A stretch of 64,000 bases of DNA from Gemmatimonadota bacterium (GTDB lineage Bacteria; Gemmatimonadota; Gemmatimonadetes; Gemmatimonadales; GWC2-71-9), in assembly GCA_039588295.1 (NCBI GenBank), contig JBDHAB010000019.1, forward strand, positions 41,834-105,833, in the 5' to 3' direction. Each line of letters starts with the position of its first letter. The first letter of the stretch is position 1. Made by a program: the position numbers. Shown one piece after another: positions 42,001-54,000 of the stretch.

Positions 42001-45000
42001 AGACCATCGTCCTCCGCGCGCCGGAACGGACGGAGGTCCTCGTGGAGTTGGGTCTGGCCGAGCGCGGTCGCGGGCGCCTGGAGCCGGCGCTGGAATGGCT
42101 GGAGCGCGCGCGGACCATCGATCCACACGATGCCACCGTGCTACAGCACCTGGGTACGGTGCTGCATGAGCACGGTGCCGACACCGAAGCGTTCTCGGCG
42201 CTGACCCGCGCCACCCAGCTCGCCCCGGACAACGCGGAAGCGCATTATCAGCTCGCGTTCGTGCTTGGCACCCTTGGCCGGCACGACGAGGCAAGAAGCG
42301 CCACGAAACTCGCCATGCAGTTGAGTCCGTCCTTGGGCCGCCCGCACGCCACGCTATCGCTCACCTCCACGCCACATGACGGCGTTCCTCCACCAGCCGC
42401 CGCGCCGGGCCAGCAACCGACGGCGGCGCTCGCGCACTACAACCTCGGACTCGTGTTCCGCCGGCAGGGCCGGTACACCGAGGCGCTACGCGAGTTTCGC
42501 CTCGCATTGGAGGCAGGGGACGATCGCCGTCTCGTGCTGCCGGCCGTGGCCGAGCTCCATTTGCTCCGGCGGGACCACGATGCCGCGATCGAGGCGTACG
42601 ATCATTTGGTGGAAGACATGGCTGACACGCCCAAGGTCTGGAACGAGCGAGGCGTCGTGCTGCACCTGCTGGGGCGATTCGATGAGGCGCTTGCCTCGTT
42701 CGAGCGTGCGATTTCGTTGGATGCCGATTATGCGCTCGCGCTCAACAACCTTGCGATCACCGCGGCGTACGGTGGCGAGCCGGCGAAGGCGATGACGGCT
42801 CTGCGCGATGCGATTCGGCGAGCGCCGGCGGTGACGCTCCCGCACACGAACCTGGGGATGCTCCTCTTCAAAGTCGGACAGCTCCAGGTGGCCATGGACG
42901 CGTTTCAGCGGGCGGCGGACTTGGATCCGACGGATGCGGCGGCGTGGAACGGCATCGGATTGGTGTTGACGGAGCTTGGGCGCGATCGGGATGCACGGCG
43001 CGCCTTCGCACGGGCCGTGGACGCCGATCCCGACTCCGCCGAACCGCACTACAACTTGAGCTTTGCACTCTCCCGTCTCGGGGAGTTCGACGAGGCATTG
43101 CGTGAGGTGACCCGCGCACAAACCCTGGATCCGTATTACATGCCCGGCAAGTTCCGTCTCGGGATCGACGCGGTCTACGAGCATCGGTCTACCGCGGTGG
43201 CGCCAGAAATCTCGGCGGATGTCGCGTCCGGATTGGGTGGACGCGGGTTTGCGTTTGAGGCGGAGTTGTTCGACGACGTGTTTGCCCAGCTGGATCAGGA
43301 GCCCGACGAGCCAGCAGCCGCCGGTGACGAGTCGGACCGGTACGCGGCGGCGCGCGCGCACCTGGATCGCGGCGAGGTCGATCGTGCGATCGAGGAGGCC
43401 CAGCGGGTGCTGCAGGCCGGCGGTGAGCCAGTGGCCGGTAACGCGCTGCTCGGCATGCTGTTCGAGCGCCGGGAGTTGTACACGGAGGCGCTGGAACGGT
43501 ACCGCGCCGCCCGCGCCAAGGCGCCACAACGCGTCGACCTCCGACTCGGCGAGATTCGGCAGCTCCTGGCACTCGGACGCAGCACGGTCGCGCTCGGGGA
43601 GGCCGTTGCGTTGTCCGCTGCTCACCCGGATGAAGTCGAGGCGGCGGTGCTCGTCGCCCGCGCCCGGCTCGCGAGCGGCGACCCGGCGCGCGCGCGGGAG
43701 GTTCTGGCGGAGGCGATCCATCGCACTCCGCGGCGCACCGATCTGCTCGCGCTGGAGGCGGAGATCGCCCTGGCCCTGGGGGATCTTCATGTCGCCCGCG
43801 ACGCCTGCCAATCGGCGGTGGAGCTCGAACCGGGATTCGTGCACGCGTGGCTGATGCTCGGCACGGTCGCCGAAGAGGCCGAGGAATGGGATGACGCCGA
43901 GTCGGCCTATCGGTCGGCGCTGGAGGGAGACCCCGCGTTTGTGGCCGCAACCCTTGCGTTGGCCGACGTTCACCGTAAGCGTGGGGCCTCGGAGCGAGCT
44001 GTGAACCTCCTGGCCGACGTGCTGGCCGAGCATCCTTCGAACCTGGACGCGTTGGTCGGTCTCGGCCGCGCGTTGCTCGACGGCGGTCGCACGGAGCAGG
44101 CCCTGGAGGCCTTCGATCGGCTGCTGCAATACGATAGTGAGCACGTCGGGGCGCTGTTTCTGTCTGCGGTGGCGGACGCGCGCCTCCGGAGATTTCGGGA
44201 AGCCGTGGCGTGTTGGGAACGCGTGGTGGCGCTCGAACCGACGAGTCCATTGGCCGCACGAGCGAAGGATCTCGCGCGAACGGCCCTCGACCTCGACCGC
44301 TTGTTTCCGGTTGGAGAGCTGTAGATGGCAATCGAAGGTCCGCTGAGAGAACTCGGGATTCACGACGTGTTCCAATTGCTCGATCTCAGTCGAAAGACGG
44401 GCGTGTTGACGATTACCTCCCGCGTCCGCCAGAACCGAGGGGTCGTGTACTTCGAGCACGGTGCAGTGGTGCACGCCGGCATTCAGGCGAATCCCCATCC
44501 GCTGGGTGGGGTGCTCCTTCGCGCGGGTAAGATCGCCGAGGCGGATCTCCACCGAGCGCGAGCCATGCAGCAACGTGGCGATACCCGTCGCTTGGGGGAG
44601 ATCTTGGTGGCGATCGGTGCGCTGGCGCGACGGGAAGTGGAGCGTCAGGTGCGGCTCCAGATCGAAGAGGTCGTCTTCGAGGTGATGAGCTGGCGCGAGG
44701 GCTATTTCTCGTTTATCGAGGGTCCCTTGGACGGTATCCCGGCCGAGGCAACGGTGCGCATCCCAACCGGTTCGCTCCTGCTGGAGGCCGCGCGGAGAAT
44801 CGACGAATGGTCACGGATCGAGTCGCACATCCCGCGGTTGACCTTGGTGCCGCACCTCGCCGAACTCGAGGGCGAGGGCGGCTGGCTGGACCTCCTACCC
44901 GCGGAATGGGAGGTGCTTGCCGCCATTGACGGCCAACGCGATCTTCGCGCCATCGGGCGGACGCTGCGCAAATCCGAATTCGACGTGGCGAGAACGGTGT

Positions 45001-51000: not shown

Positions 51001-54000
51001 CGGTCCCGCAGGTGTCTAAGAACCTCGGAGACCTGCTCTACCGCGCCGCACGGTATGACGATGCGTGGGAGGCCTATCAACGAGCGGTGCGGCTGCAACC
51101 GACGTTAGGTGACGACATCTACTTCAAGCTCGGCAACATCGCGTATAAGCGCCAGGATCGGGAACTCGCCACCGAGTACTGGAATCGCGCGTTGGAGCTG
51201 AACCCCGATCACGAACTGGCGCGGACCAATCTCGAGACGGTGAGCGCCCTGTCATGACGCGGACGCGGCATGCGGGCCGCGGAGTGTGCTGGTGACGGAA
51301 TCCTTTACGGAATCCTTTCTCGACCTGGTTCGAGAGCGTTATGCCCGCGTGTTGGAGCGCCTCGAAACTGTGCGCACGCCCCAAGAGCGCGATCAGGTGA
51401 AGCGCGACATCATCGCGCTGTTCAAGACCGTCGATCAGTCCATCACCGATTTGTCGAAGCTGAAGGAAGACATCCGCGTTCTGGTGGATCGCTACAAGGA
51501 GCTGTCGCAGGACGAGCAAGAGGGCCAGGCGCCGCAATTCAGCGGGAGCGCTCCGGTGCTCCACGCCGATCACATTGGGGCCTCGACCTTCATCGAGAAG
51601 GGGTGGAGCCTCATCTCACTGGGTGATTACCCCGGCGCGATCCACGCGTTGGGAAAGGCACTTTCGTTGGCACCAGGGGACTTACAGGCTGAATCGATGC
51701 TGGGCTGGGCGCAGATGCTCAATGAGGAGTATGACTCGGCGCTGGGCACTTTCCAGGAAGTGCTCACCAAACAGCCGACGAACTCCCTCGCGCAGATCAA
51801 CGTCGGATACATCTGTCTCAAGAAACGCCTGTTTGCAGAGGCCATCGAGCACCTGTCGAAGGCAATCCGGTTGGACAATGACAAGAAGGCCACGCTCTAC
51901 GCGCACTACTATCTCGGACTCGTCTATTTCGCGCGTGAGATGTTTGCGGAAGCGCAGAGCTTCTTCGAGAAGACGCTGAAGATTGGACCGAACCTGATCG
52001 AAGCGTACTATGAACTGGGTCGTACTCAGTGGTTCGCGGGCGATCGAGAGGCGGCGAAGCATACCTGGGAACGGGGCTATCAGGCCAACAAGTTCAACCC
52101 GTGGGGCAAACGCTGCATGCAGACGCTCGATCTGGTCGCTCGAGGCCAGGAGCCCCCACGCTAGTTCCACTCCTGCTCTTGTTGGCTCAGACCGGCGAGC
52201 CCAGCGTGGTGCAGGTGGGGCGTGTCAACGTCATCTATTGGGCGGGATCGGGGGCCACCGCCGTCGCCCTCGGCGAGTTCGCCGATCGTGCGGGACCCTG
52301 GCCCGGCATTCCCGATCCGCCGCGGCGTCCCATACGGCTGATTCTCGCGCCCGATGCCCGGCGCTTCGATTCGCTGACGGCTGGGCGCATTCCGGAGTGG
52401 GGCCAGGCCGCGTCATTTCCGGCCTCCAATACGATCGTGCTCACGCTCTCGCGGGATCATCGTCGAGTGCTCCGCCACGAGCTGGCGCATCTGGCGCTCC
52501 ACAGCGTGGTGCAACGCGTGCCGCGGTGGTTCGACGAAGGCTATGCGGCCCGTGCTGCGGGGGAATGGGATCGGTTGGAGGCCCTCCGCGTGAACTGGGC
52601 GCTGCTGCGCGGAGCCGCCCCGTCCCTGGCGGCCCTGGATCGGTATATCCGCTCGGGCACGGCGGCGGAGGCTGAGGCGTCCTACGCGCTGGCGACCACT
52701 GCGGTGCTGCTGCTGGAGCGGATGGGTGGAGAGCGGCGGCTCGAACCACTGCTGGCGAGGCTGCGCGGCACGTCCGACTTCGATCTCGCACTGCGGGCCA
52801 CGCACCAGATCACGCTGGGGCAGTTCGAAGAGTCGTGGCGCAAGGATCTGCGCACGCGCTATGGCTGGTTGCTGCTGGTCACGTCTCTGACCGTGTTTTG
52901 GGCGTTCGTCGCGCTCATCCTCACGGCACTCTGGGCCCGCCGACGCCAACGCGACCCCGAGCGCCGCCGGGCGCTCGACGAGGGGTGGGTTGTCCCGGAA
53001 GATCAATGGAACCCGGATGCTTGACGCTCCCGGAACCTAGGATTAGCCTGAGTGTCTATGAAGAATAGGACCGAGTCACCAGCGCGTCTTCGGTTTCGGC
53101 GCCGCAACATGGTGCTGCTGGGAGCGGCCATCGGGGCGCTCGCAGTAGGGTATGTGCTGCTTGCGCGGGGTTCGACGGTGGCAGCCCCTGTGCTCTTGGT
53201 CCTGGGCTACTGTGTGTTGTTCCCATTGGGACTGGCGCTGTGAGCGGCGGTCTCGCGGGCGAATAGCTCAGGGGTTCAGAGCGCCTGCCTTACAAGCAGG
53301 AAGTCGGGGGTTCAAATCCCTCTTCGCCCATGTTGAGGGCAATCATGAACCGGTACAGATCCGGAGGGCAGTAGTCTTGCGGACACGCTTACAGATTCGA
53401 CTTGTTGTAGCATTGCTTGGTGCTGTGCTGGCGGTGTCCTTCACGACCACCGGCGCGCAGGCCCAGCTTGCCGTTCGGCAGTCCAACTTGAAGATCCTCT
53501 TCCTGATTCCGCACGCGGCTGAAACTGCCGATTCCGCGTTTGCCGTCCAACTGGCCAACGAAGTGCGAACGCGGCTGCGCAACAAGATGCGGCATAAGCT
53601 CCTGATCATTCAGAGCGACGTGATCTGCCAGGTGCTCGAGGAATCGGCCTACAGCTGTGACGCCGTGCTCGGTCCGGCGGACGCCGACCGGTTGGCGCGC
53701 GCGCTGGTGTCGGACGCCTACATCACCGGCAGTCTGTGGCGTGACGGCGACGCTCCGGTTGCGCGGTTCCACATCATCAACGTCAGCCGGTCCGGGCTGT
53801 CTGGCTGGACCACCGTCACCGGTTTGACTGAAGATCAGCCGCGGGACTTCGCGGAAACCATCGTCGACAGCCTGGACAATCAGGTGCGAGCGGCGGAGCA
53901 CGCCCGTGAGTGCTCCGATCGCATTGGCCGCGGTGACTTCTCGGGGGCGAGAAACCGGGCGGAGCGCGCGTTCCGCCTGTATCCGAACCACCCGTCGGCC

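Follow-up and report, generated by a model that had tools for sequence, protein, structure and literature searches.

A DnaA-derived AAA+ ATPase of the MglA/Roadblock/PATAN gene cluster in Gemmatimonadota and its predicted docking on a PATAN-TPR protein

IstB, DnaC and TnsC are initiator-clade AAA+ adaptors outside replication initiation; they work as assembly switches that depend on ATP, not as unfoldases, and their targets are DNA and transposases or helicases. The EEVD tails of Hsp70 and Hsp90 are bound by TPR co-chaperones. For PATAN domains, a position adjoining MglA/MglB is a known context (available text of PMC4316618), and those of Synechocystis bind the pilus motor proteins PilB1/PilC (available text of 10.1101/2021.06.11.447907). 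DNA-containing polar appendages and unusual division planes are reported for Gemmatimonadaceae in the available text of PMC11271474. In the literature search, no description of the ATPase family presented here was found, nor any paper linking an AAA+ ATPase to the Myxococcus MglA/MglB module.

Gene array and anatomy of the ATPase

The window, a 64,000-nt stretch of a Gemmatimonadota genome (contig JBDHAB010000019.1), contained a translationally coupled array in the order TPR, PATAN-TPR, TPR-Roadblock, Roadblock, MglB-like, MglA, ATPase, PATAN-TPR, TPR and peptidase (Table 1). The gene order and tight packing given by the first-pass annotation were found again, with overlaps of 4 nt each between MglA and ATPase and between ATPase and PATAN2; the weak C-terminal Roadblock match on the gene annotated as TPR was an addition. 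The cluster is flanked by a divIVA-ileS-lspA-rluD block on one side and by the dcw division genes on the other. No pilus gene was found within it, and T2SSE/PilB-like ATPases are encoded elsewhere in the genome.

Table 1. Features of the gene array (positions in the window).
Feature	Position	Strand	Evidence
All-TPR protein, 905 aa, first in the array in this genome	41607..44324	+	Pfam TPR families
PATAN(DUF4388)-TPR protein 1 (PATAN1), 386 aa	44325..45485	+	PF14332 (1.2e-29), residues 4-163
TPR protein with weak C-terminal Roadblock/LC7	45475..46272	+	TPR families; Robl_LC7 19.6 bits (cut-off 23)
Roadblock/LC7 protein	46269..46619	+	Robl_LC7 39.4 bits on ORF 46098-46619
MglB-like Roadblock protein, 156 aa	46616..47086	+	Robl_LC7 25.9 bits
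MglA-family small GTPase, 199 aa	47090..47689	+	Full-length match to M. xanthus MglA
DnaA-derived double AAA+ ATPase, whole gene	47686..49638	+	650 aa
ATPase module 1, complete DnaA domain III (AAA+ core and lid), residues 1-240	47686..48405	+	Alignment to B. subtilis DnaA, conservation
ATPase family-specific helical domain, residues 255-372	48448..48801	+	Conserved in all variants
ATPase module 2, a further DnaA-type AAA+ module with greater divergence, residues 373-605	48802..49500	+	Pfam stretch
ATPase C-terminal tail motif EKVVWDWPEPADRVIEELV-COOH, residues 632-650	49579..49635	+	Conservation
PATAN(DUF4388)-TPR protein 2 (PATAN2), 540 aa	49635..51257	+	PF14332 (1.4e-37) and TPRs
TPR protein, 292 aa	51286..52164	+	TPR match; at cluster end in relatives too
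Peptidase_MA family protein	52029..53024	+	PF13485 (9.7e-11)

The ATG start at 45475 of the TPR-Roadblock gene was chosen by the analyst, and its domain search was run on ORF 45310-46272. The Roadblock gene likely starts at GTG 46269, overlapping the preceding stop as GTGA, and the true start of the peptidase gene is probably downstream of 52029. The MglA protein matched MglA of M. xanthus (6h17, E 1.6e-71) and Thermus (3t12, E 1.6e-68). The MglB-like protein matched M. xanthus MglB (6izw_B, E 4.7e-8) and, weakly, the NCBIfam MglB model (31 bits; cut-off 200). Residues 58-110 of PATAN2 matched the MshEN-type c-di-GMP motif NF053729 above the cut-off of 38 (42.0 bits); the MshE-related motif of PATAN1 scored below it (31.1 bits).

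Pfam analysis of the ATPase revealed two Bac_DnaA stretches, the best at residues 5-166 (3.9e-99). Neither DnaA_N nor Bac_DnaA_C was among the 21 families matched, which indicates that DnaA domains I and IV are missing. This agreed with the earlier description of two DnaA-type modules without these domains, and the motifs quoted for module 1 (GESGLGKTH, LLVDDVH, SDRPP) and module 2 (GPPGVGKTH, LLLDDVH, LILPP) were present in the translation. The score against NCBIfam TIGR00362 'DnaA' was 463.6 (cut-off 343.9), hence the public name 'DnaA'; the score against the Hda model TIGR03420 was 167 (cut-off 194.8). The annotated homologues of 645-670 aa (ident 56-74%), named DnaA, DnaA/Hda or ATP-binding, were indeed the top rows of the protein search and came from Gemmatimonadota wherever a taxon was stated. 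The genome holds one true dnaA (contig C1) in addition to the two DnaA-type modules of the ATPase, and its own DnaA shared 39.7% identity with module 1.

Residues 4-250 of the ATPase aligned to B. subtilis DnaA over its domain III (8btg, E 2.5e-55); module 1 could also be aligned with domain III of T. maritima and A. aeolicus. Among 34 members, K51 and D108 were invariant and D109 and R207 (the sensor II position) were at least 90% conserved; P170 and R175 were conserved too. R158, aligned to B. subtilis R264, which we take to be the Arg finger, was variable in more distant members. In module 2 of the tandem forms, conservation of K417 and D473 was at least 90%. The helical domain, folded alone, was predicted with a pLDDT of 88.6 and a pTM of 0.73, and the structural search gave no informative relative of it. 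The full-length model had a pTM of 0.45 and does not give the mutual arrangement of modules 1 and 2. In the tail, E632, K633, W638 and P639 were at least 90% conserved; WP was present in 35 of 39 rows and ΦΦ-acid-acid-x(1-3)-COOH in 31 of 39. The DNA pattern of the tail occurred once in the window.

Variants, distribution and linkage

In the phylogenetic tree, 33 of 34 module-1 rows formed one branch (SH-aLRT 100), apart from all 11 of the 11 Gemmatimonadota true DnaAs; this separate clade and the missing domains I and IV bear out the DnaA origin proposed in the first-pass annotation. Every variant across the class, those from five other families included, had module 1 and the helical domain and carried the tail (EKxVWxWP...ΦΦEExx-COOH) at its C-terminus. 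Module 2 was degenerate or absent in variants of families f4, f5, f7 and f8 and genus g79. Comparison of the variant sequences showed module 2 of this genome's ATPase to be a lineage-specific addition, dispensable across the class; the tandem is not the conserved core. By the same comparison, the constant anatomy was shown to be one complete DnaA-type AAA+ module with its ATP-binding and sensor residues, the helical domain and the tail.

The order MglB-MglA-ATPase-PATAN2 was found in 29 of 29 f1 loci, and the whole cluster was conserved in f2, f4, f5, f8 and 8 further loci, so that membership of the ATPase in the MglA/Roadblock/PATAN cluster is conserved, as annotated. The 905-aa TPR orthologue was found in loci of f1, f2, f4, f5 and f8. 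An HMM of the helical domain matched 274 of 401 genomes of the phylum, all from families f1-f5, f7 and f8; almost all positive genomes had a single copy. Each positive genome also had an MglA match (by-family tallies and a row-by-row check of f7). Chemotaxis genes surround the cluster in most relatives, with CheY-CheA-CheC and CheR-CheD-CheB-CheW as flanks; in the genus of the window organism, no CheW domain was found.

The ATPase had also been called a fixed component of the MglA switch, and three kinds of locus speak against this. In genera g54, g68 and g73, MglA adjoins PATAN2 and the ATPase is missing. In f7, ATPase, PATAN2 and peptidase lie together, with MglA more than 1 Mb away and the 905-aa TPR, PATAN1 and Roadblock genes not nearby. 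In a Cloacimonetes-labelled MAG the order was Che-TPR-PATAN-ATPase, and neither MglA nor Roadblock was found within the 18-kb locus; the PATAN protein adjacent to the ATPase lacks TPRs, and an 826-aa TPR protein is encoded separately beside it. It is with the PATAN-TPR protein, rather than with MglA/MglB, that the ATPase is most tightly linked, and the ATPase is a conserved accessory of the polarity signalling gene cluster in Gemmatimonadota.

Predicted tail docking and alternative explanations

Complex prediction placed the ATPase tail in the TPR groove of PATAN2 with a score of 0.80 (runs 0.80, 0.73 and 0.80), a measure of model confidence obtained with orthologues from another genome (G049). 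The best of three controls scored 0.19. Of 157 solved complexes, 116 reached the mark used, as did 2 of 215 mismatched pairs; this calibration is rough, as our own alignments were used. At least 59% of contacts agreed between runs, and partner pLDDT was at least 73. The predicted interface joined tail residues 378-398 and TPR residues 263-494 of the G049 pair; the helical domain made no confident contact. TPR-peptide complexes are frequent among solved structures, so part of this pass may reflect likeness. The model predicts that the tail hooks onto the concave TPR groove of PATAN2.

In the ATPase-less genera g54, g68 and g73, PATAN2 had 430-477 aa against about 540, and the shortened forms lacked the last TPRs, including the predicted contacts 462-463 and 491-494, with most of the predicted groove retained. 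These genera may represent one evolutionary event, in which case the co-loss may count only once. In g79, a divergent minimal ATPase kept its tail and PATAN2 was full-length.

It is unlikely, though worth weighing, that in the same kind of ATPase the tail docks on one of the cluster's other TPR proteins (PATAN1-TPR, TPR-Roadblock, or the 905-aa or 292-aa TPR protein) and that the PATAN2 result is a generic TPR-peptide fit. The array encodes five TPR proteins (Pfam), none of the three docking controls was another TPR protein, and in the Cloacimonetes-labelled MAG the adjacent PATAN protein lacks TPRs and a TPR protein stands beside it. However, ATPase and PATAN2 remain adjacent in f7 without the other candidates nearby, PATAN2 is missing its final TPRs in the ATPase-less genera, and an unrelated 543-aa replacement for PATAN2 scored only 0.19.

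We regard it as improbable that the ATPase is an Hda-like or DnaA-capping replication regulator, co-assembling with the DnaA AAA+ module or acting on the clamp, which simply shares an operon with polarity genes and perhaps couples initiation to the cell cycle. Module 1 is a whole DnaA domain III above the DnaA equivalog cut-off, and so DnaA-like that interaction with DnaA or DNA is possible; the cluster also lies beside dcw. However, this position is common to the whole Che cluster in relatives rather than specific to the ATPase, and is therefore cluster synteny. The earlier suggestion of a tie to the replication machinery found no support: in none of 39 members was an Hda-type clamp motif found within the first 25 residues, and for the ATPase of the window the one loose match (QLMFTL, residues 501-506) lies in a predicted core strand. 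The sub-threshold Hda score, the separate clade and the lack of domains I and IV argue the same way. In addition, ATPase presence follows the MglA/PATAN cluster, not replication genes, and three genera, along with many other genomes, have lost the ATPase while retaining one true dnaA.

A nucleoid- or DNA-bound positioning ATPase, its ATP-form module on DNA as DnaA domain III is on single-stranded DNA, anchoring or patterning the PATAN/MglA module relative to the chromosome like ParA/MinD-type ATPases, would suit the complete domain III and the DNA-containing polar appendages and unusual division planes of Gemmatimonadaceae, but is very unlikely, as domain IV is absent and the positions aligned to B. 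subtilis I190 and K222, which presumably have a role in single-strand binding, are Q/H/N and a variable basic position in the family.

Proposed function and comparison with known systems

On balance we lean, by no great measure, towards the ATPase being a non-replicative descendant of DnaA domain III that serves the PATAN-TPR/MglA signalling module as an ATP-dependent switch or scaffold subunit. ATP binding would drive DnaA-style head-to-tail association of AAA+ modules, as expected from the family, either from one protomer to the next or, inside tandem forms, between modules 1 and 2. Each ATPase unit would bring one PATAN-TPR molecule, and the ATP state would therefore set how the PATAN scaffold assembles or what valency it has. 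MglA-GTP and the three Roadblock regulators would act on this scaffold, as would the Che pathway in most relatives. The output may be a type IV pilus motor, by analogy with cyanobacterial PATAN proteins.

Like DnaA domain III and Hda, module 1 retains the Walker A/B, box VII and sensor II positions; the ATPase differs in its own clade, the absence of domains I and IV and of the Hda clamp motif, and its new helical domain and predicted TPR-docking tail within a signalling cluster. The M. xanthus MglA/MglB(/MglC/RomR-RomX) system under Frz is matched here by a bona fide MglA, MglB-like and further Roadblock proteins, and the Che genes that flank the module in most relatives. The module as described there has no AAA+ ATPase (none is mentioned in the available text of PMC4316618), whereas the present cluster has two PATAN-TPR and three Roadblock proteins, and CheW was not found in the genus.

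With the PATAN regulators PatA, PixE and PixG, which bind type IV pilus motors, both PATAN proteins share PF14332; however, PATAN is here fused to TPR arrays and not to a receiver domain, PATAN2 has an MshE-type c-di-GMP motif, and the cluster has no pilus gene. The acidic, position-fixed C-terminal tail, predicted in a TPR groove, would resemble the Hsp70/Hsp90 tails in mechanism only. Its predicted interface spans about 20 residues, including the WxWP segment, across several TPRs, and the cluster has no chaperone context. Compared with IstB, DnaC and TnsC, the ATPase shows no evident DNA-binding element, and signalling scaffolds are its proposed partners; the likeness to IstB and DnaC appears in weak Pfam/NCBIfam matches of the ATPase to IstB and DnaC-type models.

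Gene array and identity of the ATPase

The 650-aa DnaA-derived ATPase was encoded in an array with genes for TPR, PATAN, Roadblock and MglA proteins, as listed in the table below. The MglA and ATPase genes overlapped by 4 bases, as did the ATPase and PATAN2 genes, and there may be a further overlap, GTGA, at 46269. The array was flanked by yggS-divIVA-pnp-ileS-dksA-lspA-rluD on one side and by a TPR gene followed by ftsI, murF and mraY on the other side.

Genes of the array in window coordinates, with the evidence for each assignment
Product	Position	Strand	Evidence
TPR protein, 905 aa	41607-44324	+	Pfam
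PATAN1, PATAN/DUF4388-TPR protein	44325-45485	+	Pfam
TPR protein with weak C-terminal Roadblock match	45475-46272	+	19.6 bits (cut-off 23)
Roadblock protein	46269-46619	+	Pfam
MglB-like Roadblock protein	46616-47086	+	M. xanthus MglB, E 4.7e-8
MglA	47090-47689	+	M. xanthus MglA matched full-length, E 1.6e-71
ATPase, 650 aa	47686-49638	+	Pfam, NCBIfam and PDB DnaA matches
PATAN2, second PATAN-TPR protein	49635-51257	+	MshE-type c-di-GMP motif, 42.0 bits (cut-off 38)
TPR protein, 292 aa	51286-52164	+	Pfam
Peptidase_MA protein	52029-53024	+	Pfam

All genes called between 27786 and 62370 of the window lay on the + strand (FtsH, FolP, CdaA, YggS, DivIVA, IleRS, DksA, LspA, RluD, the module, FtsI, MurF and MraY). 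This orientation fits the core region, conserved, strand-biased and holding two cell-division clusters, that the available text of PMC11237797 describes for Gemmatimonadota; the slot on the divIVA/dcw side that the whole Che cluster takes in relatives also falls within the core region as that text gives it.

The c-di-GMP motif NF053729 covered residues 58–110 of PATAN2 above its cut-off, and PATAN1 remained below it with 31.1. By this motif PATAN2 is a putative MshEN-type c-di-GMP receptor, predicted to bind the ligand. A second MglA was found by tblastn in the window's genome (contig C8, 69456-69899; locus L044, 997-2172), about 52% identical and carrying an insert of some 30 residues. An MglB-like gene lay directly 5' of it, so that the genome carries an ordinary mglBA pair in addition to the expanded module. 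T2SSE/PilB-like ATPases were encoded elsewhere in the genome.

Pfam analysis revealed two stretches of PF00308 (Bac_DnaA) in the ATPase (whole-protein E 3.9e-99; best stretch 5–166), and residues 4–250 aligned to domain III of B. subtilis DnaA (8btg, E 2.5e-55); the Pfam, NCBIfam and PDB matches all identified a DnaA-type AAA+ domain III. DnaA domains I (DnaA_N) and IV (Bac_DnaA_C) were absent from its 21 Pfam families at E ≤ 0.01. The first-pass annotation had described a tandem DnaA-type ATPase lacking these two domains, which was borne out, and the motifs that it quoted were all present in the translation. The genome (160 contigs, 96% complete) contained one true dnaA on another contig, C1 (a 483-aa frame with both domain flanks), in addition to the two modules of the ATPase.

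The ATPase scored 463.6 against the DnaA equivalog TIGR00362 (cut-off 343.9), which explains its public name DnaA. It missed the Hda model TIGR03420 (167.0; cut-off 194.8) and the HdaA models (63.5 against 297 and 38.1 against 300). Full-length homologues of 645–670 aa with 56–74% identity occupied the best 120 rows of the protein search; where names were given, they were DnaA, DnaA/Hda family or ATP-binding protein, and where a taxon was given, it was Gemmatimonadota. Since the ATPase passes the equivalog cut-off, automatic annotation shows two 'dnaA' genes in genomes of the class, and the apparent second 'dnaA' can mislead origin prediction and annotation.

Conserved core, variants and origin of the family

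The family alignment contained 34 full-length members with 31–74% identity to the ATPase of the window. In module 1, K51 and D108 were invariant, D109 and R207 were at least 90% conserved, and P170 and R175 were conserved; R158 was present in the window ATPase and in most, not all, members. In module 2, K417 and D473 were at least 90% conserved. A well-conserved stretch lay between the two modules, and a C-terminal motif (the tail) had E632, K633, W638 and P639 conserved in at least 90% of the members. The residues of an initiator-clade AAA+ ATPase (Walker A Lys, Walker B Asp, sensor II Arg and box VII Arg) were all found, so the ATPase is predicted to bind and hydrolyze ATP and to work like a member of this clade. 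The tail ended in ΦΦ-acid-acid-x(1-3)-COOH in 31 of 39 rows and contained WP in 35 of 39. A degenerate DNA pattern of the tail matched once in the window, in 23 of 29 loci of family f1 (the family of the window's genome) and in locus L034; it matched none of the divergent variants.

Variants were read out of the genomes of five other families of the class. The lid of module 2 was missing in G067 (f2) and G027 (f4), and the cluster of a cultured Gemmatimonas likewise encodes a form lacking this lid. In G224 and G249 (f7), the Walker A of module 2 was degenerate and an acidic insert lay between this degenerate module and the tail. Module 2 was entirely gone in G049 (f5), G106 (f8) and G283 (g79). 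Every variant read kept module 1, the inter-module domain and the tail; thus, the tandem is a lineage feature, and the family core is one DnaA-type AAA+ module, the helical domain and the tail.

Several side observations were made on these sequences. The insert of the f7 forms (L036:9293-11293 and L041) was long and repeat-like, with runs of E, A and V in alternation as one example. In G127 (L016), a single-contig genome, the ATPase and PATAN2 were each split into two frames, by assembly error or as pseudogenes, and these split genes were left out of the analysis. A DnaA-type AAA+ stretch was also present in four very long proteins, P0188 (1990 aa), P0190 (1876 aa), P0229 (1356 aa) and P0231 (1357 aa), which matched the query at 1e-70 to 1e-89.

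The helical domain alone was folded confidently (pLDDT 88.6, pTM 0.73). Foldseek against the PDB returned no match at E ≤ 0.001, the best hit of a wide VIA-align search was a spectrin-like repeat of EzrA (Z 6.5, rmsd 3.5 over 112 residues), a score too low to be meaningful for helical bundles, and an Atlas feature search gave nothing usable. The full-length AF2 model (pLDDT 85.5) had good domains and no reliable inter-domain arrangement (pTM 0.45); pLDDT was below 50 at residues 239–260 and 605–628 and averaged about 56–63 in the tail.

Module 1 was 39.7% identical to the genome's own DnaA and module 2 was 34% identical to it; the two modules shared 33%. In an unrooted domain III tree of 97 rows (quick IQ-TREE run), 33 of the 34 module 1 rows formed a separate branch (SH-aLRT 100), all 11 true DnaAs of Gemmatimonadota fell into another branch (support 90) amid other DnaA representatives, and the module 2 rows were a third group. 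Module 1 did not group with true DnaA except in the member P0174, whose module 1 was placed among the true DnaAs. The separate clade indicates that the ATPase family is an old and distinct paralogue. An origin by recent duplication of the dnaA of the phylum was rejected, given the identity of module 1 to the genome's own DnaA and its position outside the Gemmatimonadota DnaA clade.

Distribution, linkage and chemotaxis context

A scan of the phylum with the C-terminal 411 aa was undiscriminating (399 of 401 genomes) because true DnaA cross-matches. It was replaced by an HMM of the helical domain, which is free of this cross-match, in the 401 phylum genomes including that of the window; the tallies take in four unpublished genomes, G182 and G057 (f1), G157 (f2) and G097 (f8), whose sequences were not used. 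The helical domain was found in 274 of the 401 genomes [f1: 161/166; f2: 74/93; f3: 5/5; f4: 5/7; f5: 2/2; f7: 22/70; f8: 4/4], and it was found in none of the genomes of f6 (0/30), f9 (0/4) and three families of other classes, f10 to f12 (0/19). MglA was matched at E ≤ 1e-25 in 315 genomes of the same sample, and every genome with the helical domain also had an MglA match, according to the tallies by family and a row-by-row check of f7. Most f1 and f2 genomes had two MglA matches, one at about 1e-95 to 1e-110 and one at about 1e-63. Row reading of the 24 f1 and f2 genomes without the helical domain showed that 13 retained the weaker MglA match alone and 11 a strong one.

The order MglB-MglA-ATPase-PATAN2 was present in 29 of 29 f1 loci, and the whole cluster was kept in f2, f4, f5 and f8. 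The first-pass annotation had taken the ATPase for a fixed part of the MglA switch, a claim that did not hold, since the ATPase did not always occur with the MglA of the operon. In G036 (g54), G114 (g68) and G168 (g73), PATAN2 followed directly after MglA and the ATPase was absent. In f7, the order was divIVA-ileS-rluD-ATPase-PATAN2-peptidase, MglA was at a distance of over 1 Mb, and the surroundings of the ATPase-PATAN2 loci yielded no Roadblock genes. PATAN2 is the common denominator. Locus L066, outside the phylum, was a further exception.

Relatives of P0174 were searched with one genome per species, and 80 loci were kept. Only L066, from the MAG Candidatus Cloacimonetes bacterium 4572_55, was full-length to P0174 (66% identity); the other 79 gave short match spans, of the kind that ordinary DnaA genes would give. 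Outside Gemmatimonadota, the range of the family is therefore based on this one named MAG. Its gene order was CheA, an AAA_22 protein, CheW, CheC, an 826-aa TPR protein, a 241-aa PATAN protein and a 691-aa double DnaA-like ATPase, and neither MglA nor Roadblock genes were found in the 18-kb locus. The AAA_22 gene (L066:1719-2561) is an extra ATPase gene between CheA and CheW.

The module lay inside a chemotaxis operon in most relatives. Pfam analysis of L034, L035, L037 and L038 revealed CheW, CheY, CheA and CheC upstream and CheR, CheD, CheB and CheW downstream, the set being incomplete in some of these four loci. The same frame was found by tblastn in eight further f1 and f3 loci, with L064 lacking the downstream set, and it was also present in G036 and G283. 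These relatives have a Frz-like arrangement, in which genes for a Che kinase and for adaptation lie within or next to the MglA cluster. The window's genome lacks this arrangement: no Che genes were found flanking the array in the window, and CheW domains were found neither in the genome nor in the nine genomes of its genus g1, six of them at least 90% complete. MglA, the ATPase and PATAN2 were retained by the four other g1 members of the phylum sample; the core thus persists without a detectable Che pathway. Genus g1, in which the module was present and no CheW domain was found, offers a natural setting in which to study the core free of chemosensory input.

Predicted docking of the tail on PATAN2 and proposed role

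Docking of the tail on a TPR protein was tried because the tail is conserved, ends at a set distance after an acidic pair and is poorly ordered in the model of the monomer, and because the cluster is full of TPR proteins. The modelled pair consisted of orthologues from G049, namely PATAN2 (542 aa, 16-row alignment) and residues 255–401 of the natural minimal ATPase, comprising the helical domain and the tail (39-row alignment). The complex scored 0.80 (runs 0.80, 0.73 and 0.80) and the best of three controls, which included no other TPR protein, scored 0.19; since solved structures include many TPR-peptide complexes, part of this score may reflect likeness to them. Of 157 solved complexes 116 attained the docking mark, as did 2 of 215 mismatched pairs; both counts apply only approximately here because our own alignments were used. 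Contact agreement between runs was at least 59%, and the pLDDT of the partner was at least 73. On the partner side, confident contacts involved tail residues alone (378–398), which lay along the TPR region of PATAN2 (263–494), and the helical domain had no confident contact with PATAN2 in this model. The model supports binding of the tail to PATAN2 and does not show it.

PATAN2 had 430–477 aa in the three ATPase-less genera g54, g68 and g73, against about 540 aa elsewhere. The short forms lacked the last TPRs, including the predicted contacts 462–463 and 491–494, positions that are K-N and L-G-D in most genomes with the ATPase. G283, with its divergent minimal ATPase, kept both the tail and a full-length PATAN2. 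The shortening of PATAN2 where the ATPase was lost is an independent hint of the tail-TPR contact, and the three genera may go back to one loss event.

The known role of DnaA-family ATPases is to start or restrain replication, and the first-pass annotation had suggested a possible tie of the ATPase to the replication machinery. Nothing was found in support of such a link, which is considered unlikely; module 1 is still a complete DnaA domain III. Hda carries an N-terminal clamp-binding motif of the QLxLxL type; none of the 39 members had a loose match to it within the first 25 residues, and the sole loose match in the window ATPase lay inside a predicted core strand, so a clamp-binding motif was rejected for the family. 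Many genomes of the phylum with one true dnaA lack the ATPase family. In relatives, the entire Che cluster sits at this site beside divIVA and dcw, on which ground a cell-division role derived from this proximity was also set aside. What stood of the earlier interpretation is a non-replicative DnaA-derived ATPase in the module; a fixed MglA/MglB component coupled to replication was not upheld.

For this non-replicative ATPase, the tail is predicted to sit in the TPR groove of PATAN2, and the AAA+ modules may associate head to tail in an ATP-dependent manner, as in the initiator clade. Through such association the nucleotide state could set the number of PATAN2 molecules held together. MglA and the Roadblock regulators would act on the same PATAN2 scaffold, as might c-di-GMP through the PATAN2 motif and, in most relatives, the Che pathway. 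PATAN domains of Synechocystis bind PilB1 and PilC, according to the available part of 10.1101/2021.06.11.447907. We tentatively propose, as a scenario that we consider rather unlikely, that the initiator AAA+ fold became a third nucleotide switch (ATP) of the polarity circuit: ATP-bound units would polymerise in DnaA style and would each recruit, by an EEVD-like tail, the c-di-GMP-sensing PATAN-TPR protein addressed by MglA-GTP and Che, forming a self-assembling and resettable polar hub for ATP, GTP, c-di-GMP and phosphorelay inputs.

Literature searches on MglA with DnaA, with and without Roadblock, gave no listed titles or abstracts linking MglA to DnaA, and searches on PATAN/DUF4388/MglB, Gemmatimon* MglA, PATAN domain with DnaA and DnaA paralogues of the phylum gave no description of the ATPase. 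PATAN genes near some MglA genes are reported in PMC4316618, whose main text, as far as available, does not mention an AAA+ or DnaA-like neighbour of MglA; its supplementary tables may list the gene. The minimal ATPase architecture, the co-shortening of PATAN2 where the ATPase was lost and the Che-less state of genus g1 are new, as is the tail-TPR contact predicted by the model. To our knowledge, the described versions of the MglA, Roadblock and PATAN toolkit are without an ATPase, and the one found here would be an addition to it. A conserved lineage that lacks both DNA-related domains and bears a scaffold-docking tail would be a clear reuse of the initiator motor for signalling. The docking predicted in silico would resemble the EEVD-TPR contact of Hsp70/90, in that a conserved C-terminal peptide, here the ATPase tail, would likewise lie in a TPR groove.
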